Shown: piece after piece, positions 9,318 to 49,648 of the stretch
How positions within the stretch are numbered: position 1 is the stretch's first letter
Layout: each line of letters begins with the position of its first letter
IMG/VR virus record: IMGVR_UViG_3300021962_000077
Coordinates: 1-64,000 of that record
DNA from: a virus
Length of the DNA stretch: 64,000 nt
Strand: one strand, 5' to 3'
The notes under the pieces: generated by a model
Seen by the model: the letters and a program-made list of their open reading frames with translations, nothing else
Told to the model about the DNA's origin: nothing
Databases searched by the model: none
Translations under genes and position numbers: made by a program

Positions 9318-9824
9318 ATGACCCTAGACAAATACGGAAATCCTATATTCACCGAACAAGATATTTTTGAATTGTTATATCAAGGACAATTTCAAAAATT
9401 AGATCAGCTGTTTGTAAAAGATTCCAAAGAGATTCAAAAATTAGAATTGGAATCTAGCATTTCATTTAAAAAACCCAACGAACAATTTTATACTCTGGCT
9501 GTGGAGGATTTTGATCATATACTACAGTCAGATTGGTTTATGCCCGAAGAATATAAAAATATGGACATAGAAGCATTTTTGATTCAGCATAGTACTAAAG
9601 AGCATAATGATCGATTAATGGAAGAATTGCAAGAATACAAAAAGCGCGATATGATCAATCTCTTACGCTGGTTAAAATACTTTGTAGATACCCTGAGAGC
9701 TAAGAACATTATCTGGGGAGTAGGACGGGGTAGTAGCGTAGCCAGTTATGTTCTCTTTATTTTAGGTGTACATAAAATCGATAGTATTAAGTATAATTTA
9801 GATTGGCGAGAATTTTTGAGATAA
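9318..9824 (+). CDS. DnaE (Pol III alpha)-like fragment
   Basis: WGVGRGSSVASYVLFILGVHKIDSIKYNLDWREFLR matches the DnaE GxGRGS...ERFL segment; ORF stops before the PDxDxD catalytic motif. Confidence 0.8.
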   Translation: MTLDKYGNPIFTEQDIFELLYQGQFQKLDQLFVKDSKEIQKLELESSISFKKPNEQFYTLAVEDFDHILQSDWFMPEEYKNMDIEAFLIQHSTKEHNDRLMEELQEYKKRDMINLLRWLKYFVDTLRAKNIIWGVGRGSSVASYVLFILGVHKIDSIKYNLDWREFLR

Positions 9825-12345: not shown

Positions 12346-13260
12346 ATGAAAACCTTATGGACTGAAAAGTATAGGCCTAAAACTATTAACGGCTATGTTT
12401 TTAGAGACGATGCTCAAAAATCGCAAGTTAATCATTGGATTGAACAAAAGACTATCCCACATTTACTATTCAGCGGAAATGCAGGTATTGGTAAAACTAC
12501 CCTAGCAAAGATCTTGCTCAACGAACTAAACATAAATGATCTTGACATTTTAGAAATTAACGCTAGTCGTACAAACTCAGTAGAAGATGTTAGAGATAAA
12601 ATTGTAAACTTTGTCCAAATGATTCCATTTGGAGATTTTAAGGTAGTACTATTAGATGAAGCAGATTACTTGTCTCCCAACGCACAAGCGGCTCTTCGCG
12701 GTGTTATGGAAGAATATCACACAACCGCACGATTTATTCTTACTTGCAATTATCCTAACAGAATCATTCCTGCTTTACATAGTCGATGCCAAGGATTTCA
12801 CATTGAGCGTGTCGATATTACTGAGTTTACCGCTCGTGTTGCTACTATTCTTGTTGAAGAAAACATTGAGTTTGACCTCGATACCCTAGACACATTTGTC
12901 AAGGCAACTTATCCAGACTTACGCAAGTGTATCAATACTGTACAAATGAATAGTATGAGTGGTACATTACATACTCCAGAAAAAGGAGATACTGGAGATG
13001 CAGACTATAAGATTGAAATGGTTGAACTGTTTAAGAAAGGTAAGATTTCAGAAGCACGTAAACTAGTATGTGCTCAGGCTAGACCAGAAGAAATTGAAGA
13101 TATCTATAGATGGCTCTATGATAATGTAGCTATTTTTGGAGAAGAGTCTAAACAAGAAGCTGCCATATTGTGGATTAAACAAGGCATGGTAGATCATACG
13201 CTAGTAATCGATCCAGAAATTAATCTAGCAGCAACATTAATTAGGCTAGCACATATTTAA
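12346..13260 (+). CDS. Clamp loader AAA+ subunit (T4 gp44/RFC-small-like)
   Basis: LWTEKYRP, GNAGIGKT, INAS, LLDEAD, SRC, PDLRK. Confidence 0.93.
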   Translation: MKTLWTEKYRPKTINGYVFRDDAQKSQVNHWIEQKTIPHLLFSGNAGIGKTTLAKILLNELNINDLDILEINASRTNSVEDVRDKIVNFVQMIPFGDFKVVLLDEADYLSPNAQAALRGVMEEYHTTARFILTCNYPNRIIPALHSRCQGFHIERVDITEFTARVATILVEENIEFDLDTLDTFVKATYPDLRKCINTVQMNSMSGTLHTPEKGDTGDADYKIEMVELFKKGKISEARKLVCAQARPEEIEDIYRWLYDNVAIFGEESKQEAAILWIKQGMVDHTLVIDPEINLAATLIRLAHI

Positions 13261-34712: not shown

Positions 34713-37385
34713 ATGAGCTATGTAGACGCATGGTTCGATCGCGAGAACGACATTATCAAGATTGTCGAGCGTTCGAACCAAGGTAAAAGAGAATTTAGAG
34801 ACATACCTGTTAGGTATACATTTTACTACGAAGATGCACGTGGTAAATTTCAATCAATTTATGGCACGCCGTTATCAAGAGTTGTTTGCCGTAATTCAAA
34901 AGATTTCCGTAAAGAAATGGCCATACACTCTAACAAAAAGATGTATGAAGCAGACATTAATCCAATCTTTGTTTGTCTAAGTGAAAATTATTTAAATCAA
35001 GACGCACCAAAACTAAACACTGCCTTCTTTGACATTGAGGTAGACTTTGATCCAGAACGTGGGTATGCTAGCCCAGACGATGCATTCATGCCAATTACTG
35101 CTATCGCAGTTTATCTGCAATGGTTAGAAACAATGGTCTGCCTAGCTATTCCGCCTAAGGGAATGAGTATTGACACCGCCAAAGAACTAGTAAAAGATTT
35201 TCCTAACACACATATTTTTGACAACGAAGCAGATTTGTTAGACACATTTTTGAAATTAATCGAAGATGCAGATGTTATCAGTGGTTGGAACTCAGAGGGT
35301 TTTGATATTCCCTATACTACCAATCGCATTACCAAAGTACTCAGCAAAGACGATACACGCAGGATGTGCTTGTTTGGACAGTATCCTCGCAAGCGTGAAT
35401 ATGAAAAATATGGAAAACAGGCCATAACATATGATATGATTGGTCGTGTACACTTAGACTATCTTGAATTATATCGTAAGTACACATATGAAGAACGTCA
35501 CAGCTACAGACTAGATGCCATTGCCGAATATGAATTAGGTGAACGTAAAACACAATACGAAGGCACACTTGATCAACTATACAACAATGACTTTAAAAAG
35601 TTTGTTGAATATAACAGACAAGACTGTGCGCTTCTTGATCGATTAGATAAGAAACTAAAGTTCTTAGATCTTGCCAATAAACTGGCACATGAAAACACTG
35701 TACTACTACAAACAACAATGGGTGCTGTGGCTGTGACAGAACAGGCCATTATTAATGAAGCACATCGCAGAGGATTTCAAGTTCCCAATCGTACTAAAAT
35801 GGACGATCGTGAGAGCAACGAAGGTGCCGCGGGTGCCTATGTTGCTTACCCTAAAGAAGGCCTACAAGATTGGATTGGATCACTGGACATTAACAGTCTA
35901 TATCCCAGTGCTATTCGTGCGCTTAACATGGGTCCAGAGACTATTGTGGGGCAGTTACGTTCTACATACACAGATGAGTACATAACAGAACAAACTACTC
36001 TTAAAAAGAAAACGTTTGCTGCCGCGTGGGAAGGATTGTTTGGATCGCTAGAATATGAAGCTGTTATGCGGCAAGATCGCGGAGTCGATGTTACTATCGA
36101 CTGGGAATCCGGAGAAAGCGATACACTTAGTGCCGCAGAAATATACAAATTAATTTATGATAGTAATCAACCTTGGATGTTAAGTGCCAATGGAACTATT
36201 TTTACATGGGAAAGAGAAGGAATCATTCCCGGATTATTAAAACGATGGTATGCTGAACGTAAAGAGATGCAGGCCAAATTAAAGGAGAGCAAAGATGCAG
36301 GCAATGATATTGAAGAAGAGTATTGGGATAAGCGACAATTGGTTAAGAAAATTAACCTCAATTCGCTTTACGGTGCGATCCTTAACCCTGGCTGTCGCTT
36401 TTTCGATAAGCGTATTGGGCAATCTACCACTCTTACTGGGCGACAGATTGCCAAGCACATGGCTGGAAAAGTCAATGAGATCATCACTGGAGAGTTTAAT
36501 CATGTCGGCAAGGCAATCATATACGGTGACACAGATTCTTGTTATTTCTCAGCATATAAAACCTTAAAGAAAGACATAGATAGTGGACAAATACCTTGGA
36601 CTAAAGAAACTGTCGTACAACTTTATGACCAGATTGGAGAAGAAGTAAACACAACGTTCCCACAGATGATGCTAGACTCTTTTCATTGTCCAAAGAGTCG
36701 TGGTGAAGTTATCAAAGCAGGACGAGAAATCGTTGCATCAAAAGGATTGTTTATTACTAAGAAACGTTATGCCGTACTCTATTATGACAAAGAAGGCAAA
36801 CGAGCAGATGTTGACGGTAAACCTGGTAAAATCAAAGCCATGGGCTTAGATCTAAAACGCAGTGATACTCCAGAATTTATTCAAGACTTTCTAAGTGATG
36901 TATTAGAAAAAGTACTAACAGGTGCAACTGAAGAAGAAGTTTTAAATCAGATTACAGAATTCCGCACTCTATTTAAGGCTAGACCTGGCTGGGAGAAAGG
37001 ATCTCCTAAACGTGCTAATAATATTACTGAGTATCAGGCTAAAGAAGTCAAACAGGGCAAGGCCAATATGCCGGGTCACGTAAGAGCCAGTATAAATTGG
37101 AACACGCTTAAACGCATGATGGGAGACAAATATTCGATGAGTATTACAGATGGTGCTAAAGTAATCGTGTGTAAAATTAGAGATAATCCTATGGGGTTTA
37201 CTAGTGTGGCATATCCAGTAGATGAACTACGGTTACCGCAATGGTTTAAGGATCTGCCATTTAACGATGCTGAAATGGAAACTACTATCATTGATAACAA
37301 ATTAGATAATTTGATTGGCGTACTAGGTTGGGATATTAGATCAACTGAAGAAAAAAATACGTTTAATAGTTTATTCGAGTTTTAA
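34713..37385 (+). CDS. Family B DNA polymerase (T4 gp43-like)
   Basis: Exo motifs DIE, GWNSEGFD, YNRQD; pol motifs DINSLYP, KINLNSLYG, YGDTDS, KKRY. Confidence 0.96.
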   Translation: MSYVDAWFDRENDIIKIVERSNQGKREFRDIPVRYTFYYEDARGKFQSIYGTPLSRVVCRNSKDFRKEMAIHSNKKMYEADINPIFVCLSENYLNQDAPKLNTAFFDIEVDFDPERGYASPDDAFMPITAIAVYLQWLETMVCLAIPPKGMSIDTAKELVKDFPNTHIFDNEADLLDTFLKLIEDADVISGWNSEGFDIPYTTNRITKVLSKDDTRRMCLFGQYPRKREYEKYGKQAITYDMIGRVHLDYLELYRKYTYEERHSYRLDAIAEYELGERKTQYEGTLDQLYNNDFKKFVEYNRQDCALLDRLDKKLKFLDLANKLAHENTVLLQTTMGAVAVTEQAIINEAHRRGFQVPNRTKMDDRESNEGAAGAYVAYPKEGLQDWIGSLDINSLYPSAIRALNMGPETIVGQLRSTYTDEYITEQTTLKKKTFAAAWEGLFGSLEYEAVMRQDRGVDVTIDWESGESDTLSAAEIYKLIYDSNQPWMLSANGTIFTWEREGIIPGLLKRWYAERKEMQAKLKESKDAGNDIEEEYWDKRQLVKKINLNSLYGAILNPGCRFFDKRIGQSTTLTGRQIAKHMAGKVNEIITGEFNHVGKAIIYGDTDSCYFSAYKTLKKDIDSGQIPWTKETVVQLYDQIGEEVNTTFPQMMLDSFHCPKSRGEVIKAGREIVASKGLFITKKRYAVLYYDKEGKRADVDGKPGKIKAMGLDLKRSDTPEFIQDFLSDVLEKVLTGATEEEVLNQITEFRTLFKARPGWEKGSPKRANNITEYQAKEVKQGKANMPGHVRASINWNTLKRMMGDKYSMSITDGAKVIVCKIRDNPMGFTSVAYPVDELRLPQWFKDLPFNDAEMETTIIDNKLDNLIGVLGWDIRSTEEKNTFNSLFEF

Positions 37386-37386
37386 T

Positions 37387-38169
37387 ATGAAAATTATAGT
37401 TGCTGGTTACGGATACGTGGGCAAAGCAGTACAGGCTGCTTTTGGCTACAAACATGAAGTGGTAATAGTTGACCCTGCTCTTACAGATGAAGATATTAGG
37501 AATCACTTTGATGCGGATTGTATTATTATTTGTGTTAGTACTCCACCTACCGACTCTGGGACTTGCAATGGTGCAAATGTACTAGATGTAATCGATCAAA
37601 CTCCGATTGATATACCAATAATGATTAAAAGTACCGTAAGTCCAGATATAGTTGATCTATTAGAAGAAAAATATTCTAAACATAGCATTGTAATAAGTCC
37701 AGAATTATTAAGAGCTAGATCTAGCGCAGAAGATTTTATTAATCAAAAGTATGTTATTATAGGCGGAGAAGATCCCGAGTGTTTTTGGCAAGAACTTTTT
37801 ACAGATACTTTACCAAGTTGTAAGTTAGCATTAAAATGCTCTATGAAAGAAGCATCAATAGTCAAATATGCTTCAAATAGTTTTCTTGCATTAAAAACGT
37901 CATACTTCAATCAATTATACGATGTATGTCAATCTACTAATACTGACTTTGACATTGTTAGACACATTATGTCACAGGATCTACGTATTGGATCGGATCA
38001 TACTATGGTTCCAGGTCCAGACGGAGAAAGAGGATGGGGCGGTCATTGTTTCCCCAAAGATACACTTGCCTACACACTATGGGCAAGATCAATAGATGCT
38101 AGACAAAGTGTTCTAGAATCAGCCATATCATATAATAATATGGTAAGAAAAAACATTGACAAAAAGTAA
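37387..38169 (+). CDS. UDP-glucose/GDP-mannose dehydrogenase family protein (lacks C-terminal domain)
   Basis: GYGYVG Rossmann, IKSTV, SPE, KYASNSFLA, GWGGHCFPKD. Confidence 0.88.
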   Translation: MKIIVAGYGYVGKAVQAAFGYKHEVVIVDPALTDEDIRNHFDADCIIICVSTPPTDSGTCNGANVLDVIDQTPIDIPIMIKSTVSPDIVDLLEEKYSKHSIVISPELLRARSSAEDFINQKYVIIGGEDPECFWQELFTDTLPSCKLALKCSMKEASIVKYASNSFLALKTSYFNQLYDVCQSTNTDFDIVRHIMSQDLRIGSDHTMVPGPDGERGWGGHCFPKDTLAYTLWARSIDARQSVLESAISYNNMVRKNIDKK

Positions 38170-38201: not shown

Positions 38202-38930
38202 ATGAAAGATATTTTACAAGATATTGTAGCACATACATACCAATTAGGTATTATTTCGCTGGTAAAGATTACAGGCAACAACGGAGAAACTCTAGTTGAA
38301 TCAATGGCTGAAGATCGTTCAGTTATTATTTCTGCAAAAACTGTAGAGCCTGTTACAGAATTTGACGGCATTTTTGGTATGCCAAACTTAGATAAACTTA
38401 AATTTTTACTTAACTGTGAAGAATATAAAGAGGATGCTAAGATAACTGTTGTTGAAGCAACAAGAAATAACGAAGTAGTACCAACAGGTTTACATTTTGT
38501 AAATCAAACACAGGATTTTCAAAACGACTATCGTTTTATGAATACTGAAATTATTAATGAAAAACTTAAATCAGTTAAGTTTAAAGGTACTACTTGGGAA
38601 ATTGATTTTGAACCAAGTATTACTAGTATTACAAGATTAAAATATCAATCACAAGCTCACAGTGATGAACCAAACTTTCAAGTTAAAACTGAAAATAATA
38701 ATCTTATCTTTAGTTTTGGAGATGCAGGATCACACGCAGGTAGTTTTGTGTTTCAACCAAATGTTAGCAAATTAAAACACACATGGTCTTGGCCAGTTAG
38801 CCAGGTTACGAGTATACTTGCATTAAGTGGTAATAAGACTATGAAGATTAGCGATGCAGGTGCTATGATGATCACCGTAGATAGTGGTATGGCAACATAT
38901 GACTATATTTTACCAGCAATGAGCAAATAA
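38202..38930 (+). CDS. Probable sliding clamp (gp45/PCNA-like)
   Basis: 242 aa, beta-rich pattern ending ...YDYILPA (PCNA-like end); next to the polymerase; clamp loader present in the window. Confidence 0.55.
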   Translation: MKDILQDIVAHTYQLGIISLVKITGNNGETLVESMAEDRSVIISAKTVEPVTEFDGIFGMPNLDKLKFLLNCEEYKEDAKITVVEATRNNEVVPTGLHFVNQTQDFQNDYRFMNTEIINEKLKSVKFKGTTWEIDFEPSITSITRLKYQSQAHSDEPNFQVKTENNNLIFSFGDAGSHAGSFVFQPNVSKLKHTWSWPVSQVTSILALSGNKTMKISDAGAMMITVDSGMATYDYILPAMSK

Positions 38931-38932
38931 TT

Positions 38933-39154
38933 ATGGAAACTAAACGCAGAACCGTTGTTAGAATGATAACTTATCGCTTGACCGCATGGTTATTTACAAT
39001 CTTTTGGACTTACTTGTTTACAGGTAACTTAGGTAACTCAGCAGGATTTGCCACAGCCTTGCACATTCTTCTCAGTATAGATTACTACATACACGAAAGA
39101 ATATGGCTTAGAATTAAATGGGGTAGAATAGATGGGGACATCAATGCCGAGTAG
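38933..39154 (+). CDS. Small membrane protein (DUF2061-like)
   Basis: ETKRRT...TYR...YYIHERIW..IKWG. Confidence 0.7.
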   Translation: METKRRTVVRMITYRLTAWLFTIFWTYLFTGNLGNSAGFATALHILLSIDYYIHERIWLRIKWGRIDGDINAE

Positions 39155-39632
39155 AGAAAAAGACCAAGCAGACTTTGACTTGGAAACATTTGTAGATTTG
39201 TTTGACACAGCTATTTCGTCAGATAATCCTGCTGTACAACGAGCATTGAAAAACTTGTTGATGATTGCGGCTATTGTTAATGCAGAAGATCCCCAAGCAG
39301 GTATGCGTCAAGGGCCGTTAAAAAGAGTGTTGGAGGATCAACGAAATATTATTCGTAGATTAGAAAATATAGAAAACAACGGTGGCAACTTACATAGACA
39401 ATATGGTCCTATTCCTAGTACACCAAATATGCCTACACCTTGGGTTGTGCCAACACCAGTTCAAAGTCCTAATACTGGAACACCAAATTTTCCTCCAGGT
39501 ACAATTTGGACTACAACTAATACATCTACCAGTTACGCTGCCAAAGACAGCGGAGCAGTGGCTGCACAGGGTCATGTATCGACAGTATCACTTGACGGAT
39601 TATTTGAAAAACTAGAAGCAAAGTCTCTATGA
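39144..39632 (+). CDS. Hypothetical protein
   Basis: ORF 39132..39632; likely start at second ATG after ggggac. Confidence 0.6.
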   Translation: MPSREKDQADFDLETFVDLFDTAISSDNPAVQRALKNLLMIAAIVNAEDPQAGMRQGPLKRVLEDQRNIIRRLENIENNGGNLHRQYGPIPSTPNMPTPWVVPTPVQSPNTGTPNFPPGTIWTTTNTSTSYAAKDSGAVAAQGHVSTVSLDGLFEKLEAKSL

Positions 39633-41311
39633 ATCGAAATTTAACAGCAACACAAAATGACTATGCATATTTCTTGCCAGCAACGTCAGGATTTTATAGC
39701 ACATTCATAGGTAAACAACGCTATGGAAACTATGTAGATCCTGCACGGTTACCTGCTAGTTTTACTAATGGTGTTGAAGGATTGAATTATCTTAATCCGG
39801 ACAAAGGCATGTTCTATTATCATCACTGCCTTTATTCGGCAGGACACGCTAATTTAGATTTGTCTAAACCAGACGAAACTGAAGACATGTTCCGTAATAG
39901 AGATCGTTCGACTAGTTGGGTGTTAGGCGATTCAGGTGGATTCCAGATTGGTAAGGGTGTATGGGCCGGTGAGTGGCGTGATCCAAACGGTCCCGAAGTT
40001 GCTGCTAAATGGAAAGAAGTTAATGCCAAGGGTATCGAACTTGTCCCACAATTAGATGCCAGCGGCAATCCTAAGCTAGATAAAAATGGCAATCCAAAGA
40101 TGACCAAGATTGATCATCCTAAACTTTATCAAGCACAATTAGATGCCGCACAAAAGAAACGTGAACAAGTATTAACTTGGATGGACGCACTTATGGACTA
40201 TGGAATGGTACTGGATATTCCAGCATGGGTGGCTCGTAGTCCTGCAGGTATGGCTGCTACAGGTATCGAGTCATACGATCAAGCCGTTGATGCTACCAAA
40301 TACAATAACGAATACTTTATTAAACATCGTACTGGTGCATGTAAATTTCTAAACGTTCTTCAAGGCGAGACTCACAGTCAAGCAGAAGATTGGTATCAAA
40401 AAATGAAAGACTTTTGCGATCCAAAAGTATATGAAGACAAAGCATTTAATGGTTGGGCCATGGGTGGCCAAAACATGTGTGATATTCACTTGGTCTTAAA
40501 AAGACTAGTGGCATTAAGATTTGATGGACTACTTGAAAAAGGCAAACAAGATTGGATGCATTTTTTAGGTACATCAAAATTAGAGTGGGCAGTCCTGCTC
40601 ACAGACATCCAACGTGCTGTAAGGAAATATCATAATGAAAACTTTACCATATCTTTTGACTGCGCCTCACCGTTTCTGGCAACAGCAAACGGACAAATCT
40701 ACATCCAAACAGAAACAGAAGACCGCACTAAATGGGTCTATAGGATGCAGGGTGGCGCAGACAACAAAAAATACGCCTCTGACACACGTCTCTTCAAAGA
40801 TGCTGTAGTACAAGATGGTATATTTGAAGGATTTGAATCTAGTCCAGTTATGGATCAAGTCCAAATGAAAGACATCTGCATTTACGGACCAGGCGATGTA
40901 AACAAGAATGGCAAAGAAGGTAAAACAAGTTGGGATTCATTTAGTTATGCTATTATGATGGGCCATAATGTATGGATGCATTTAAATGCGGTTCAAGAAG
41001 CCAATCGACAATATGATTTGGGCAAATTACCTTCAATGTTGGTTGACGAACAATTTGATAGAGTGTATTATAAGGACATAGTAGAAGCTATTTTTGCAAC
41101 AGATGACAGAGCTACCGCAGAAGCAATTATTGAACACTACAGTAGATATTGGGATACTATAATTGGTACTAGAGGTAATACTGGTAAAAGAATTGTGAAT
41201 GCACATACCAAAGCTGATGAACTAGGTATACCGGCTGTAGATTTCAGTGATCTTAAAATAGTTAAGAAACAAGAACCTGTAACAACAACATTTGAAGATT
41301 TGTTTGAATGA
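39629..41311 (+). CDS. TGT/DpdA-family guanine transglycosylase-like protein
   Basis: LGDSGGFQ, VLDIP, VLQG, WAMGG, HFLG, SFDCAS, HN in TGT order; no CxCxxC zinc motif. Confidence 0.8.
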   Translation: MNRNLTATQNDYAYFLPATSGFYSTFIGKQRYGNYVDPARLPASFTNGVEGLNYLNPDKGMFYYHHCLYSAGHANLDLSKPDETEDMFRNRDRSTSWVLGDSGGFQIGKGVWAGEWRDPNGPEVAAKWKEVNAKGIELVPQLDASGNPKLDKNGNPKMTKIDHPKLYQAQLDAAQKKREQVLTWMDALMDYGMVLDIPAWVARSPAGMAATGIESYDQAVDATKYNNEYFIKHRTGACKFLNVLQGETHSQAEDWYQKMKDFCDPKVYEDKAFNGWAMGGQNMCDIHLVLKRLVALRFDGLLEKGKQDWMHFLGTSKLEWAVLLTDIQRAVRKYHNENFTISFDCASPFLATANGQIYIQTETEDRTKWVYRMQGGADNKKYASDTRLFKDAVVQDGIFEGFESSPVMDQVQMKDICIYGPGDVNKNGKEGKTSWDSFSYAIMMGHNVWMHLNAVQEANRQYDLGKLPSMLVDEQFDRVYYKDIVEAIFATDDRATAEAIIEHYSRYWDTIIGTRGNTGKRIVNAHTKADELGIPAVDFSDLKIVKKQEPVTTTFEDLFE

Positions 41312-41568: not shown

Positions 41569-42082
41569 CTATACTAACGGCACATTAGAAGGTGTAGAAT
41601 TCTTTATTGGCACAGAAGTTGAGCACACACCTGCATTTGGTATGCCTACGCTATTTGTAACAGGATTACAATCAATAAATGCAATTGAAGGTGTTCTAGC
41701 CAATAACAACGTTAAACACATATTCTTTGGTGCTAATCATAGTTTCAATCCTGTGTATAATGACTACGCAGGTTGGAAACAATGGGATGACATGATTACT
41801 CATTTCTTAGACAAAGATTATCTTTGCTCACTAGATATACCGTTGAGTGCAGTAGAAGAATTTCACGACGGCGGACTTTGTGAATATTTGAATTTTATTC
41901 CGCAGATAAGAGTGCCAATACCTTATATAAAATTATGGAATTATAATACAATGCTTAAGATTGATGACAAAGATTTTAAGGCAACTAATCCTGGTGTGTG
42001 GTCCCACAGTCTACACTCACTAATGTCCCGAAGAACTTTTACAGACTGGTCACAATATAAAAATGATGAAGTGATAAAATGA
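41558..42082 (+). CDS. Hypothetical protein within the deazaguanine cluster
   Basis: FIGTEVEHTP, HIFFGANHSF, KIDDKDF.ATNPGVW. Confidence 0.7.
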   Translation: MKRNYTNGTLEGVEFFIGTEVEHTPAFGMPTLFVTGLQSINAIEGVLANNNVKHIFFGANHSFNPVYNDYAGWKQWDDMITHFLDKDYLCSLDIPLSAVEEFHDGGLCEYLNFIPQIRVPIPYIKLWNYNTMLKIDDKDFKATNPGVWSHSLHSLMSRRTFTDWSQYKNDEVIK

Positions 42083-42477
42083 ATCAAACAACAATGAGAC
42101 AAGACTGGCGTCCAAACAAAATGATTTGGGTTACCTTTCGTAAAGAAGGTATTCATAAGTATCCAGCCGCACTTACTGAACCAACACTAGCAACAGGAGA
42201 TGAATATGATGTATCGTTTTTGGGTCATCCTCATCGTCATATATTCCATTTTCGTGTCTGGATTTCAGTTACCCACAACGATCGTGACATCGAATTTATT
42301 CAATTTAAACGCTGGTTGGAAAAACTATACTCAGATGGTACAGTACAACTAGACTATAAGAGTTGCGAAATGATGAGTGATGAACTTCATTCTATCATTT
42401 CCAATAAGTATCCAGGTCGTGAGATCTGGATCGAAGTCTCCGAAGACGGAGAAAATGGTTCATTTATCAAATACTAA
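42079..42477 (+). CDS. QueD/PTPS-like T-fold protein (divergent)
   Basis: GHPHRHIFHFRV (HxH), DIEF, SCEM, VSED. Confidence 0.65.
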   Translation: MNQTTMRQDWRPNKMIWVTFRKEGIHKYPAALTEPTLATGDEYDVSFLGHPHRHIFHFRVWISVTHNDRDIEFIQFKRWLEKLYSDGTVQLDYKSCEMMSDELHSIISNKYPGREIWIEVSEDGENGSFIKY

Positions 42478-42495: not shown

Positions 42496-42729
42496 ATGAT
42501 TAAAAGTTACAAAGGTTATGCCTATTTTGACAACCATCCTGAGATTGTAAAAATCTTTGAGGACTTAGAGGCATTTCATGATTTTTGTCGCTTTGAATTA
42601 ATGCCTTTCAATGAGGCAGATCTCTATAACAATCGTAGCTATGTATGGCGAGCGTTTAGTGATCGAAACGGCAGACGTTACCCTGCTAAGAAACGTCAAT
42701 TTGAAAAGAAACCATATAGAGCATACTGA
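42496..42729 (+). CDS. Hypothetical protein
   Basis: 77-aa ORF with SD aagga. Confidence 0.6.
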   Translation: MIKSYKGYAYFDNHPEIVKIFEDLEAFHDFCRFELMPFNEADLYNNRSYVWRAFSDRNGRRYPAKKRQFEKKPYRAY

Positions 42730-43826
42730 TGGCAAAGATTTGGCTTATTGATTTAGAAGCCGTTGAAACAAGGTACACTGGTCAATGGAAGACCCATGTA
42801 CCTAATCTCTTACGCAAGGAAGGACATGATGTTCAAGTTATTTCTGGTCCGGTGGATATCCCTAGTGCTACTACTCCCGGTGCTTTTCTTAATTTCGGCG
42901 GGACTAATATATACAAAGCTAGCCAAGTTGAGCAAATCGGTAGGTTATTTTGTAGCGGATCCGTTACCGCTGGCGACCATTTTATTTTTACTGATGCTTG
43001 GCATCCAGGCATTATAAATCTAAAATATATGAGTGAACTACTGAATATCCCAGTAGTTACACACGGTCTTTGGCATGCTGGTTCATACGATCCTCAAGAC
43101 TTTCTTGGGCGCTTAGTCGGTAAAAAGGCTTGGGTACGTCACGCTGAAAAAAGTTTTTATCACGCATTTGATCATAACTATTTTGCCACAGAGTTTCACG
43201 TACACTTGTTTATGAAACAGTTACTCAACGATGGCTACACTAGTGAAAATCCTTGGTGGCACGAGGATTGGTATGAACGCTATGACAGCGGTAAAATTGT
43301 TAAGACTGGTTGGCCTATGGAATATATGCAGGATACTCTTGCACCTTATAAAGGTCTGAAGAAACGAGATATGATTTTGTTTCCGCACCGTATTGCACCA
43401 GAGAAGCAAGTTGAAATTTTTAGAGACTTAGCTATCCACTTACCGCAATACGAGTTTGTTGTTTGCCAAGATCGACAACTTACTAAGCATGAGTATCACA
43501 CACTGCTAGGCGAAGCAAAGATGGTGTTTAGCGCCAATCTACAAGAAACACTGGGTATCAGTTGGTACGAAGGTGCTTTAGTAGATACTATACCATTAGT
43601 TCCAGATAGACTTAGCTATAGTGAAATGGCATTTGATACATTTAAATATCCTAGCCAATGGACTGAAGACTTTGATGCATATACTGTTTATCGTCCAAAT
43701 TTGTGTCGTTTAATTATAGAACACATGGCTAACTATAACACTAGAATTTCGTCAATTCGTAAACAAGCAGATGCATTAACAGAACAATTCTTTTCAGCAA
43801 CTAGGTTATTAGAAAGACTAAAATGA
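42729..43826 (+). CDS. GT-B glycosyltransferase (GT4-like)
   Basis: FPHRIAPEK and ETLGISWYE (E-x7-E). Confidence 0.8.
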   Translation: MAKIWLIDLEAVETRYTGQWKTHVPNLLRKEGHDVQVISGPVDIPSATTPGAFLNFGGTNIYKASQVEQIGRLFCSGSVTAGDHFIFTDAWHPGIINLKYMSELLNIPVVTHGLWHAGSYDPQDFLGRLVGKKAWVRHAEKSFYHAFDHNYFATEFHVHLFMKQLLNDGYTSENPWWHEDWYERYDSGKIVKTGWPMEYMQDTLAPYKGLKKRDMILFPHRIAPEKQVEIFRDLAIHLPQYEFVVCQDRQLTKHEYHTLLGEAKMVFSANLQETLGISWYEGALVDTIPLVPDRLSYSEMAFDTFKYPSQWTEDFDAYTVYRPNLCRLIIEHMANYNTRISSIRKQADALTEQFFSATRLLERLK

Positions 43827-44883: not shown

Positions 44884-45096
44884 ATGAAAGAATTTATAGT
44901 AAAAGAAAATGATGCTTTTAGACTTCGCGTAAAAAGTCATAAATGTATTAACCCATCAGATCTTAATAGCTTAGAATTTATTCAAGAAATTAAAAACAAT
45001 AAAGGTGACATAGATGAAACATCAACATACAATTTTTTCCTCACTGACGAAGAAATTAAAAAACTTGCTGTCGGGCTCACAACTATCTCAGAATAA
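44884..45096 (+). CDS. Hypothetical protein
   Basis: 70-aa ORF with SD aagga. Confidence 0.55.
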   Translation: MKEFIVKENDAFRLRVKSHKCINPSDLNSLEFIQEIKNNKGDIDETSTYNFFLTDEEIKKLAVGLTTISE

Positions 45097-45652
45097 AATT
45101 TCTGATGATGAATATGTCAGTCTAGTTAAAAAAATCTGTAAGCAGATTGAAAAAAGTAACTGGCGGCCTAGTTGTGTCGTAGGCATCACTAGGGGAGGTC
45201 TATTGCCTGCTGTAATGATCAGTCATTACTTTAACGTTAAGATGTATTCTTTAGATATAAGTTTACGTGACGGTGGAGAATGCACTAGCAATTTATGGCT
45301 AGCTGAAGAAGCATTTGGTTACACTCCTAAAGAAGAACTAGACGAACAATTATATTTAGAAGTTAGTGGTATTCCAGCTTCTTCAGCAAGAGCACAAAAA
45401 GACATATTAATTGTAGACGATATTAATGATACAGGTGCTACACTAAATTGGCTTATGGACGATTGGCGTAGTGGATGTTTGTCCTATGACCCTAAATGGA
45501 ATAACATTTGGAATCATAATGTTAAATTTGCAGTAGTAGTTAATAACATTTCAAATAACTGCAATGTCAAAATGGATTTCGTTGGAAAAGAAATTGACAA
45601 GTCTAAAGATGACTCTTGGATTATTTTTCCTTACGAGGAATGGTGGAAATGA
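45014..45652 (+). CDS. Purine phosphoribosyltransferase (Gpt/Hpt-like)
   Basis: VGITRGGLLPA, LIVDDINDTGATL (PRPP loop), WIIFPYE; true start uncertain. Confidence 0.85.
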   Translation: MKHQHTIFSSLTKKLKNLLSGSQLSQNKISDDEYVSLVKKICKQIEKSNWRPSCVVGITRGGLLPAVMISHYFNVKMYSLDISLRDGGECTSNLWLAEEAFGYTPKEELDEQLYLEVSGIPASSARAQKDILIVDDINDTGATLNWLMDDWRSGCLSYDPKWNNIWNHNVKFAVVVNNISNNCNVKMDFVGKEIDKSKDDSWIIFPYEEWWK

Positions 45653-45828
45653 TTAAAAAAATCATCAACGTGCTACATTTTATACTAATACCTGTCATTG
45701 CAATATGGGCATTTAACACTCTTTGGCCAAGTGCAAGTATTCCTCTATCTATTGAAACTTGGATTGCAGGTGCAGTATTATTTAATAGGCATGCAATAGA
45801 ACGTCTCATTAAATTTAAAAATGACTGA
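45649..45828 (+). CDS. Small membrane protein
   Basis: Hydrophobic 59-aa ORF, coupled start. Confidence 0.5.
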   Translation: MIKKIINVLHFILIPVIAIWAFNTLWPSASIPLSIETWIAGAVLFNRHAIERLIKFKND

Positions 45829-46189
45829 TTTAGAAAAAGCACTTAGTCAAGGTAGAGCTCCCTGGAAATCTATTGAATATAGAACTAAAGATTACTGGGT
45901 CTTTTCAGATGCGTATCCTGTAACTCAAGGGCATTTATTATTTGTTCCAACATATGAAAACTTTGACAACGTCATTGAATGTTGTAAAGCCGCTTACAAA
46001 TTCGGATATCTAGGGGTAGAATCTGAGAAATGGGATGGCTTTAATGTTGGACAAAATTGCGGAGAGGCTGCTGGACAAACAGTAGAATATCCGCATGTTC
46101 ATATGATACCTAGACGCAAAGGTGATATGGAAGATCCTCGCGGCGGGGTAAGACACGTAATACCAGAAAAAGGAAATTATAAAAAATGA
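45821..46189 (+). CDS. HIT-family nucleotide hydrolase
   Basis: DAYPVTQGHLL, GFNVGQN.GEAAGQTV, HVHMIPR. Confidence 0.88.
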   Translation: MTDLEKALSQGRAPWKSIEYRTKDYWVFSDAYPVTQGHLLFVPTYENFDNVIECCKAAYKFGYLGVESEKWDGFNVGQNCGEAAGQTVEYPHVHMIPRRKGDMEDPRGGVRHVIPEKGNYKK

Positions 46190-46750: not shown

Positions 46751-47536
46751 ATGGTATATAACAAAGTATATGAAAGCAATGATCCAGAAGGATCAGAATC
46801 TTCAAGGCCTGTTTCAATAGATAATATAGATGAAGCAGAATATGAAGTTGGTTATTTAGGAGATGCTATTCGTGCCAAGATGCGGCGTGATGGTAAAAGA
46901 TTCTGGGCTGGTGACAATATCAGCAACTACCTACATCCTACAGATAAAGAACATCTAATTAATGAAGCCACAGAAGCATTTGAATTAGTACTAGACCGTT
47001 TATTAATTGATCGTGAAAACGATCCTAATAGTAAAGGCACAGCACGTAGACTGGCTAAAATGTATTTTGAAGAAATAATGGCAGGTAGATATGAACCAGC
47101 ACCAGATTGTACAGCGTTTCCTAATGATAGCGCGGATCGTTATGAGGGTATGCTTGTGGTTCGCAGTGAGCTTCGTAGTATGTGCAGTCATCACCATCAG
47201 CCTGTTAACGGTGTGGCTTATATTGGAATCATCGCCGCAGAAAAACTCATTGGATTGTCCAAGTACACACGTATTGCCCAATGGTGTGCTCGTAGAGGAA
47301 CCCTACAGGAAGAACTGTGTATTGACATAGCCAACGCAATCGAACAGGCCACAGGCAGTAATGATGTCGGTGTTTATATACAGGCTCAACATGGTTGTTG
47401 TGAAAACAGAGGAATTATGGCACACTCAAGTTTAACGCAGACTACAGTGTTGCGAGGGCTTTTCAAATCTGATACAAGCGTTAAAAAAGAGTTTATGGAC
47501 AATATTAAACTTCAACAAGATTTTGCACCGCGATGA
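46751..47536 (+). CDS. folE: GTP cyclohydrolase I
   Basis: SMCSHH, IGLSK, LQE, HGCCENRG. Confidence 0.95.
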   Translation: MVYNKVYESNDPEGSESSRPVSIDNIDEAEYEVGYLGDAIRAKMRRDGKRFWAGDNISNYLHPTDKEHLINEATEAFELVLDRLLIDRENDPNSKGTARRLAKMYFEEIMAGRYEPAPDCTAFPNDSADRYEGMLVVRSELRSMCSHHHQPVNGVAYIGIIAAEKLIGLSKYTRIAQWCARRGTLQEELCIDIANAIEQATGSNDVGVYIQAQHGCCENRGIMAHSSLTQTTVLRGLFKSDTSVKKEFMDNIKLQQDFAPR

Positions 47537-48787: not shown

Positions 48788-49648
48788 ATGAGTAAAATAA
48801 AAATAGCCGAATTATTCTATAGTATACAAGGAGAAGGACGTTACATGGGTGTACCGTCCGTATTCTTACGCACCTTTGGTTGTAACTTTAAATGTGCAGG
48901 GTTTGGTATGCCGGCAGGACAACTAAGCACTGAAGTTGAAGATATTGCCTACACTCATGAAAATATAGAATCGTTTCAACGTTACGAAGAGCTACCTTTG
49001 GTTAGTACAGGCTGCGATAGTTATGCATCGTGGGATCCAAGATTCAAAGATCTGAGTCCTATGCTAGAAAGCAATGCTATTGTTAATCGTATTATGGAAA
49101 TACTTCCACATCGTCGTTGGGAAGACGAACATCTTGTTATTACTGGCGGTGAGCCATTGCTGGGGTGGCAACGTGCTTATCCAGATCTATTAGATCATCC
49201 TAGTATGCACAGACTCAAAGAGATCACATTTGAAACCAATGGCACTCAAAAACTCACACCTGAGTTTAAAGAATATTTGTTAGGATGGGATCGACAGGAT
49301 CATCAGCAGAGAGAAATCACTTTCAGTGTAAGTGCCAAACTTCCTTGCAGTGGAGAAAAGTGGGAAGAAGCTATTCTACCAGAAGTTGTATGTGAATACG
49401 AAGAAGTAGGCACAGCGTATCTAAAATTTGTTATTGCTACAGAAGAAGATAGAGACTATGCATTGAAAGCGGCTGGCGAATATCGTGCGGCTGGTTTTAA
49501 AGGACACGTTTATCTCATGCCAGTGGGTGGTGTAGAAAGTGTTTACACGTTGAATAATCGTCGTGTTGCAGAACTGGCAATGAAACATGGTCTACGCTAC
49601 AGCGACAGACTACAAGTACCATTGTTTAAAAATGAATGGGGAACCTAA
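48788..49648 (+). CDS. queE: 7-carboxy-7-deazaguanine synthase (radical SAM)
   Basis: FYSIQGEG, FLRTFGCNFKC...CDS (expanded Cys spacing), ITGGEP, FETNGT, SDRLQ. Confidence 0.88.
   Translation: MSKIKIAELFYSIQGEGRYMGVPSVFLRTFGCNFKCAGFGMPAGQLSTEVEDIAYTHENIESFQRYEELPLVSTGCDSYASWDPRFKDLSPMLESNAIVNRIMEILPHRRWEDEHLVITGGEPLLGWQRAYPDLLDHPSMHRLKEITFETNGTQKLTPEFKEYLLGWDRQDHQQREITFSVSAKLPCSGEKWEEAILPEVVCEYEEVGTAYLKFVIATEEDRDYALKAAGEYRAAGFKGHVYLMPVGGVESVYTLNNRRVAELAMKHGLRYSDRLQVPLFKNEWGT

Follow-up and report, generated by a model that had tools for sequence, protein, structure and literature searches.

Why a putative base-exchange enzyme should end in almost the same short peptide as the DNA polymerase of its own phage is the question raised by a stretch of viral DNA in the IMG/VR record IMGVR_UViG_3300021962_000077. 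The window analyzed here comprises 64 kb (positions 1 to 64,000) of a 73.6-kb contig with a G+C content of ~37%. Its source is an uncultured tailed phage, the replication genes of which are T4-like according to the Pfam and PHROG matches in the window. Three plus-strand genes are central to the question. They encode a family-B DNA polymerase (34713..37385), a protein of 242 amino acids (aa) (38202..38930), and a 560-aa protein (39629..41311) that resembles tRNA-guanine transglycosylases (TGTs) and the related phage enzyme DpdA. An earlier note on this DNA had proposed that the transglycosylase rides a sliding clamp, the product of the middle gene, and modifies newly replicated DNA. The comparisons reported below suggest that the tail peptide of the enzyme probably does tether it to the phage clamp.

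The polymerase (890 aa) is related to gp43 of phage T4, as indicated by its matches to PF00136 (E-value 3.8e-36) and phrog_262 (2.5e-200) and by 26% identity to T4 gp43 over 699 alignment columns (1e-57). Its C-terminus reads ...STEEKNTFNSLFEF (...EEKNTFNSLFEF), and the last residues, TFNSLFEF (residues 883-890; 37359..37382, plus strand), are the presumed clamp-binding epitope. This tail aligns with the C-terminus of T4 gp43, EEKASLDFLFG. The 560-aa enzyme ends in ...KQEPVTTTFEDLFE (...PVTTTFEDLFE). The pattern T-F-x-x-L-F-E, which the earlier note had described as common to the two proteins, is present exactly in both translations, and the 242-aa open reading frame (ORF) is indeed positioned between their genes. 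When the contig was scanned for the looser pattern [FLIM]xx[LIMF]F among the 14 C-terminal residues, 24 of the 352 ORFs of at least 40 aa were retrieved, of which no more than four are long ORFs on the plus strand, namely those for the polymerase, the enzyme, a 166-aa protein and a Bax1-I membrane protein.

For comparison, two sets of 80 related loci were collected, one in a search with a 13-sequence alignment (relatives with 59-84% identity) and the other with 10 divergent sequences (~35% identity to a divergent member). Contigs from IMG/VR and metagenomes, up to ~370 kb long, carry relatives of the genes, as do cultured jumbo phages, including the PA5oct-like Pseudomonas phages, Vibrio phage 2.275.O and Sinorhizobium phage Phosso. 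The pattern [FYLMV]xx[LMFI]F occurs within the last 12 residues of 131 of 133 distinct polymerases from the related loci. In PA5oct, the polymerase gene (L081:608-5834) is interrupted by a homing-endonuclease gene, and the clamp-type tail is located on the second piece.

For the 242-aa protein, Pfam gave no match, and its only PHROG assignment is to a family of unknown function. Its AlphaFold2 (AF2) model, with 34 aligned relatives, has a mean predicted local distance difference test score (pLDDT) of 89.6 and a predicted template modelling score (pTM) of 0.86. The top Foldseek matches of this model are eukaryotic and archaeal PCNAs, with yeast PCNA at an E-value of 5.9e-11 and a probability of 1.00. 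Using VIA, 219 of the 242 residues were aligned to Haloferax PCNA (3ifv_C) with a Z-score of 18.1 and a root-mean-square deviation (rmsd) of 3.1 Å. The alignment spans residues 1-240 and covers a two-domain protomer of beta-alpha-beta type, and all 50 of the 50 VIA matches listed are PCNAs. In two phage records, a homologue of this protein is labelled PCNA or sliding clamp. As judged from the model, the product of 38202-38930 is therefore a PCNA-type clamp by fold, which bears out what the earlier note had supposed.

No such assignment was obtained for the enzyme by sequence methods. The protein has no Pfam match at an E-value of 0.01 or better, the TGT family PF01702 included, and no PHROG match. 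Neither phmmer nor a 99-sequence profile retrieved anything among the PDB sequences, the top profile matches being noise (e.g., FtsH, E-value 0.14), and Pfam TGT was reached weakly by only 2 of the 99 family members (best E-value 0.043). Since these methods gave nothing, fold comparison was needed to identify the enzyme. Its AF2 model (pLDDT 91.4) matched the Z. mobilis TGT in Foldseek with an E-value of 3.7e-8 and a probability of 1.00. In VIA, model residues 12-472 were aligned with the T. maritima TGT (2ash_B) with a Z-score of 20.1 and an rmsd of 4.3 Å over 299 residues, and 50 of the 50 matches listed are TGTs, with Z-scores from 19.0 to 20.1. The TGT-type barrel in the model agrees with the TGT/DpdA-like assignment made before from the sequence.

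Among 99 sequences of the family, P198, H311 and D344 (in F-D-C) are invariant, while D101-S-G-G-x-Q106 and D196 are, among others, nearly so; in the window enzyme, residues 101-106 read DSGGFQ. The catalytic and substrate-binding aspartates of TGTs are D102, D156 and D280 (Z. mobilis numbering), and D101, D196 and D344 probably correspond to them. The titles of matched PDB entries name C158, D156 and C281 mutants, which is consistent with this correspondence of the aspartates. Two further statements of the earlier note were confirmed. The CxCxxC zinc site of tRNA TGTs does not occur anywhere in the 560 residues, nor is there a cysteine cluster among the invariant columns of the 99 sequences. 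Likewise, an insertion follows DSGGFQ, which comprises ~52 residues (121-172; 39989..40144, plus strand) and is apparent both in the alignment and as insert states in hhalign. This insertion is specific to the clade. It is present at full length in the window and in its aligned close relatives P0005 and P0019, shorter in P0121 and P0122, and absent from 8 of the 13 aligned sequences, and it is modelled with high confidence as a helix plus beta-hairpins.

The enzyme family includes at least 7952 proteins at 90% clustering, with 935 representatives at an E-value of 1e-3 or better. A comparison of the family profile with DpdA gp123 of the T4-like phage ACP17 by hhalign gave a probability of 96.4% (E-value 1.3e-9, 183 columns), and this match shows, at the level of profiles, a remote homology rather than membership in the same subfamily; ACP17 was beyond the reach of tblastn with the window enzyme at 1e-5. 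The match to DpdA3 of phage phiST (CGPG_00065) has a probability of 85.6% and an E-value of 5.5e-6 but spans only 83 columns, and the label DpdA3 was not adopted for the enzyme on these grounds. The phiST protein has 259 aa, compared with 560 aa for the window enzyme. PMC10516641 distinguishes the subfamilies bDpdA and DpdA1-4. The window enzyme differs from these phage DpdAs in that it lacks a Pfam TGT match and a zinc motif and contains the 52-residue insertion and the polymerase-like tail. Because the ACP17 match is remote and the phiST match partial, we treat the enzyme as a separate, remote branch of the superfamily. It is, according to its modelled fold, a very divergent, zinc-less member of the TGT/DpdA superfamily.

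In the model, the enzyme ends with a disordered C-terminal tail (residues 514-560; 41168..41308, plus strand), in which the pLDDT drops below 50 over residues 514-528, 533-536 and 542-560. The terminal motif TFEDLFE (residues 554-560; 41288..41308, plus strand), the proposed clamp-docking peptide, forms a five-residue helix at 555-559. F555, F559 and E560 are invariant among 27 aligned close relatives, and the C-terminus of every one of the 120 closest homologues is F-x-x-[LFI]-F-E, followed in three cases by an extra residue. Across 150 distinct sequences from 155 IMG/VR loci, [FY]xx[LMFI]F was found in the last 60 residues of 119. The same motif was found in 1 of 1097 control windows of the same proteins, and shuffled tails gave a mean of 7.2 and a maximum of 15. 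At the scale of the family, 34 of 96 full-length representatives at 50% identity have [LMIF]F in their last 10 residues, compared with 244 of 4180 controls and with a mean of 9.5 and a maximum of 18 in shuffled sequences. The conservation of the terminal motif among homologues, which the earlier note had suggested as a check, is borne out in roughly half to four-fifths of the family.

The position of the motif differs between lineages. In the relatives of both locus sets, the conserved segment GTRGxTGKKxVNAxT is immediately succeeded by [FY]xxLF[DE], with which some of the proteins terminate, while others continue with an acidic linker and a terminal KL[DN]xLE-type motif; the PA5oct enzyme (L081:6998-8620) was among the relatives examined for such two-motif tails. 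In the clade of the window, the motif has been lost after GTRGxTGKKxVNAxT and is present ~30 residues downstream, at a new C-terminus, a shift that speaks for selection on the presence of the motif and not on its position. The terminal motif of this clade is preceded by the element KA[DE]E[LF]GIPxVDFSDL[KR] (residues ~524-542; 41198-41254, plus strand), as seen in 35 distinct close tails. The element is located at the usual position of the motif and may be another short linear motif. A second C-terminal motif resembling KL[DN]xLE was observed in 54 of 74 distinct sequences from the first locus set and is absent from the window's clade; its conservation suggests that these tails may have a second binding partner.

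To what extent the motif is specific to the two proteins was analyzed in the related loci. Its strict form, F..[LMFI]F within the 12 C-terminal residues, was detected in 73 of the 78 distinct polymerases and in 13 of the 74 distinct enzymes. Among the 43 ORF families that recur in at least 8 of 80 related loci, each of the other families has at most two members with the motif, all of them antisense shadow ORFs. No third motif-bearing client was consistently present in the interval from the clamp gene to the enzyme gene at other loci, where 6 of 115 intervening ORFs have [LFMI]F near the end. Chance was rejected as the source of the shared peptide on account of both the excess over control windows and the restriction of the motif to two of the 43 families.

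The gene order is conserved as well. In the window, the clamp gene is located ~0.7 kb upstream of the enzyme gene with two small ORFs in between, and across 152 loci the median gap between the two genes is 191.5 nucleotides (nt). The polymerase gene is present in 79 of 80 and 70 of 80 loci of the two sets, respectively, and the clamp gene in 80 of 80 and 77 of 80. PA5oct and Vibrio phage 2.275.O show the order polymerase, clamp, enzyme and deazaguanine genes, as in the window.

Moreover, the two tails resemble each other within a phage. The polymerase and the enzyme end in NNTDLFDW and NNNDLFGW in Vibrio phage 2.275.O, and in HFDSLFGW and SFNSLFDV in PA5oct. In ACP17, the polymerase ends in SLDDLFE and the remote DpdA gp123 in TLDELFE. 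At one IMG/VR locus (L120) the 8-mers are identical, at another (L132) 7 of 8 positions are the same, and at three more (L108, L091 and L160) FF replaces LF in both tails, with FFEF in both at L108. In a permutation test with 112 unique pairs, 3.589 of 8 positions were identical compared with 3.381 after permutation, and 5 of 5000 permutations reached the observed value; the excess is small (0.2 identities of 8), and kinship among the loci causes the permutation count to overstate independence. On this comparison of sequences, the tails of the polymerase and the enzyme change together.

A precedent for such sharing is known from T4-like phages. In the passages of PMC2988020 cited here, gp43, gp55 and gp33 of T4 bind the clamp gp45 via highly similar, interchangeable hydrophobic-acidic C-termini on flexible linkers of variable length, and the RB69 clamp was crystallised with the 11 C-terminal residues of its polymerase on a hydrophobic patch. 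By homology with T4 and RB69, the polymerase tail of the window would bind the phage clamp, and the enzyme tail would presumably use the same site. The likeness to the clients of gp45 consists in a hydrophobic-acidic peptide on a flexible linker that is common to the polymerase and a non-polymerase protein of one phage. In contrast to them, the presumed client of the window is a putative enzyme of base exchange in DNA and neither a polymerase nor a transcription factor, and its docking is a prediction. The clamp is PCNA-like by fold without a sequence-family match, unlike the T4 case, and most relatives have an internal motif with a second one downstream of it.

Taken together, the clamp fold, the conservation and specificity of the tail motif, the co-variation and the T4 parallel make clamp tethering well supported by comparison. 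In the mechanism that we favour, the enzyme would replace guanine in phage DNA with a 7-deazaguanine base, the product of the FolE, QueE and DpdL proteins encoded nearby. Its catalytic barrel (residues 1 to ~513) would be followed by the disordered tail ending in TFEDLFE, a copy of the polymerase peptide TFNSLFEF, and this peptide would dock in the ligand pocket of the PCNA-like trimeric clamp of the phage. The three-site clamp, either loaded at the fork or left on the new duplex, could then carry the transglycosylase along fresh DNA, and base exchange would thereby be coupled to replication.

The substrate assumed in this mechanism is based on the gene context. Downstream of the enzyme gene, the plus strand of the window encodes a DpdL-like QueD paralogue, a proposed decarboxylase of 7-carboxy-7-deazaguanine (CDG), with an LxxxHRHxF motif (LGHPHRHIF; 42079..42477). 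In tblastn, this protein is 55.5% identical to that of ACP17 and 34.4% to that of phiST. GTP cyclohydrolase I (FolE; 46751..47536; PF01227 at 1.3e-38, phrog_2197 at 2.9e-45) and a QueE-like radical-SAM enzyme (48788..49648; phrog_2076 at 8.4e-51) are encoded farther downstream on the same strand. Genes for deazaguanine precursors are also located beside the enzyme gene in PA5oct, Vibrio phage 2.275.O and ACP17. According to PMC10516641, DpdL is proposed to act as a CDG decarboxylase leading to 2'-deoxy-7-deazaguanosine (dDG), and phages with DpdL have DpdA, FolE, QueD and QueE but no QueC. The window resembles these phages in that an enzyme with a TGT-superfamily fold is co-encoded with FolE, QueE and DpdL without QueC. 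Furthermore, the DNA of PA5oct is resistant to several restriction enzymes with G-containing sites, which the authors attribute to modified G in the passages cited (PMC12191111). Given this resistance and the deazaguanine gene neighbourhood, it is a reasonable inference that the substrate of the enzyme is DNA.

A conserved 365-aa protein (42729..43826, plus strand) accompanies the enzyme and DpdL. It has no Pfam or PHROG match and is 40.6% identical to PA5oct gp317 (E-value 4e-91) and 35.8% identical to ACP17 gp124 (3e-62). Just downstream of the deazaguanine genes, the region 45014-46189 (plus strand) encodes a protein with a phosphoribosyltransferase domain (PF00156) and a HIT-family protein, and these two could serve in the purine salvage of excised guanine.

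Several observations weigh against the clamp-tethered enzyme. The motif is not universal: 31 of the 150 locus sequences and 39 of the 96 representatives are free of it. One motif-free lineage (L114, L125, L142 and L152) still encodes the enzyme; its enzyme gene lies 3-5 kb from the clamp gene, which, being a single event, is an anecdote. Whereas the T4 peptide is C-terminal, the motif of most relatives lies within the tail, and the co-variation with the polymerase tail is modest in size, as described above. The PA5oct homologue of the clamp (L081:5915-6661) is annotated as a structural protein and was detected in virions by electrospray ionization tandem mass spectrometry (ESI-MS/MS), which is surprising for a replication clamp. 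Finally, expression of ACP17 dpdA plus dpdL in E. coli yielded no dDG, for which the authors list several trivial causes (PMC10516641); a missing phage partner fits this failure, but so do these causes. The proposal of a clamp-riding transglycosylase is supported in part, namely by the clamp fold, the conserved tail motif and the co-variation. The assumption of a T4-type, strictly C-terminal peptide fits the window's clade and fails for the family as a whole.

Sharing and co-variation of the motif show only that the polymerase and the enzyme have a common partner, not which one. The peptide might thus bind another replisome hub that is contacted by the polymerase, such as the single-strand-binding protein, the helicase-primase or a phage-specific scaffold. 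The second terminal motif, KL[DN]xLE, implies at least one further partner for many of the tails, and in Phosso the enzyme gene adjoins the primase and helicase genes rather than the clamp gene. However, the polymerase is homologous to T4 gp43, the clamp is the partner of the T4 tail with which the polymerase tail aligns, and immediate proximity of the clamp gene to the enzyme gene is conserved over the 152 loci. We therefore regard a hub other than the clamp as unlikely. A near-identical peptide would also compete for the site of the polymerase, and the motif might act as a regulator that competes for the clamp to pace replication, or it might serve in oligomerisation, auto-inhibition or turnover of the enzyme; TGT enzymes act as dimers. 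Such roles appear quite improbable, since the tail is predicted to be disordered (pLDDT below 50) and does not pack against the barrel in the model, a self-contact would not be expected to co-vary with the tail of the polymerase, and a trimeric clamp offers three sites, so that competition need not be exclusive.

It is also conceivable that the resemblance has no function, being a convergent hydrophobic-acidic ending, or that the enzyme is a tRNA-modifying TGT for which replication is irrelevant. The motif is short, and the motif-free representatives would be in line with such an explanation. We nevertheless consider it very improbable. The enrichment of the motif is very large (119 of 150 compared with 1 of 1097 control windows), the motif is limited to two of 43 ORF families, and the window's clade, which lost the motif at its usual position, carries one ~30 residues farther on, at the new C-terminus. 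In addition, the enzyme lacks the tRNA-TGT zinc site, and its gene forms part of an operon with replication and deazaguanine genes. Tethering of the enzyme to the clamp via its tail is the explanation we retain.

Clamp clients that act on new DNA are also known for PCNA, where DNMT1, FEN1 and ligase bind via PCNA-interacting protein (PIP) boxes, and PCNA-peptide complexes are among the structural matches of the clamp. Similar to these clients, the enzyme would be a DNA-processing protein that binds a clamp of the PCNA fold through a short motif, possibly internal, in a disordered region with h-x-x-h-a spacing; unlike them, it belongs to a bacteriophage system. A canonical PIP box, Qxx[LIM]xx[FY][FY], was rejected for the window, as TTTFEDLF has no Q and only one aromatic residue at its end. 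Some relatives read Q-x-x-F-x-x-L-F, which is PIP-like in spacing only. A link between DpdA or deazaguanine modification and a clamp was not found in the titles and abstract openings of the literature retrieved. The word 'clamp' has 0 occurrences in the main text of PMC10516641.

Besides the polymerase, the window encodes a gp44-like large subunit of the clamp loader (12346..13260, plus strand; phrog_168 at 8.2e-80) as well as a 5'-3' exonuclease, a thymidylate synthase, a dCMP deaminase and PhoH. A Pro/Thr-rich ORF of 166 aa (39132..39632, plus strand) is located between the clamp and enzyme genes, just upstream of the latter, and ends in SLDGLFEKLEAKSL. This ending joins an LxxLF motif with a KLE element and resembles both tail motifs of the enzyme family. 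The ORF has no Pfam or PHROG match and is lineage-specific, with weak homologues in only 2 of 80 related loci; from its sequence, it is a possible further carrier of the motif. Between the polymerase and the clamp, a short gene (37387-38169, plus strand) encodes a 260-aa protein similar to UDP-glucose/GDP-mannose dehydrogenases (PF00984 at 2.7e-20) and was found in 33 of 80 related loci. A 168-aa ORF at 9318-9824 (plus strand) is a fragment match only, to a domain of the DnaE-type Pol III alpha subunit (PF07733 at 6.6e-11; phrog_11127), and in Phosso a similar small gene near the enzyme gene is annotated as 'DnaE-like'.

Modification of phage DNA with 7-deazaguanines is currently seen as post-replicative and as the work of a free-standing DpdA, as described in the main text of PMC10516641. 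A clamp-docking tail would provide a concrete mechanism by which a base-exchange enzyme is recruited to new DNA via the phage's own clamp. In a more far-reaching version, which we put forward tentatively and consider somewhat doubtful, DNA hypermodification would be a function of the replisome itself. The transglycosylase would ride the clamp as a toolbelt client beside the polymerase, and the two-motif tails would bridge the clamp and a second replisome protein. If this were true, replisome-bound exchange could help to achieve a very high replacement of guanine, the lack of product from ACP17 dpdA and dpdL in E. coli would be explained by the absence of the phage clamp and its loader from this host, and the tails with FxxLF, an acidic linker and KLDxLE would mark bivalent clients of the clamp and a second replisome protein. 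The feature is carried by the cultured phages PA5oct, Vibrio phage 2.275.O and ACP17 and is thus directly testable. If tethering holds, a DNA-modifying transglycosylase would join the clients of sliding clamps, and phages would possess a parallel to the PCNA-tethered methyltransferase DNMT1.

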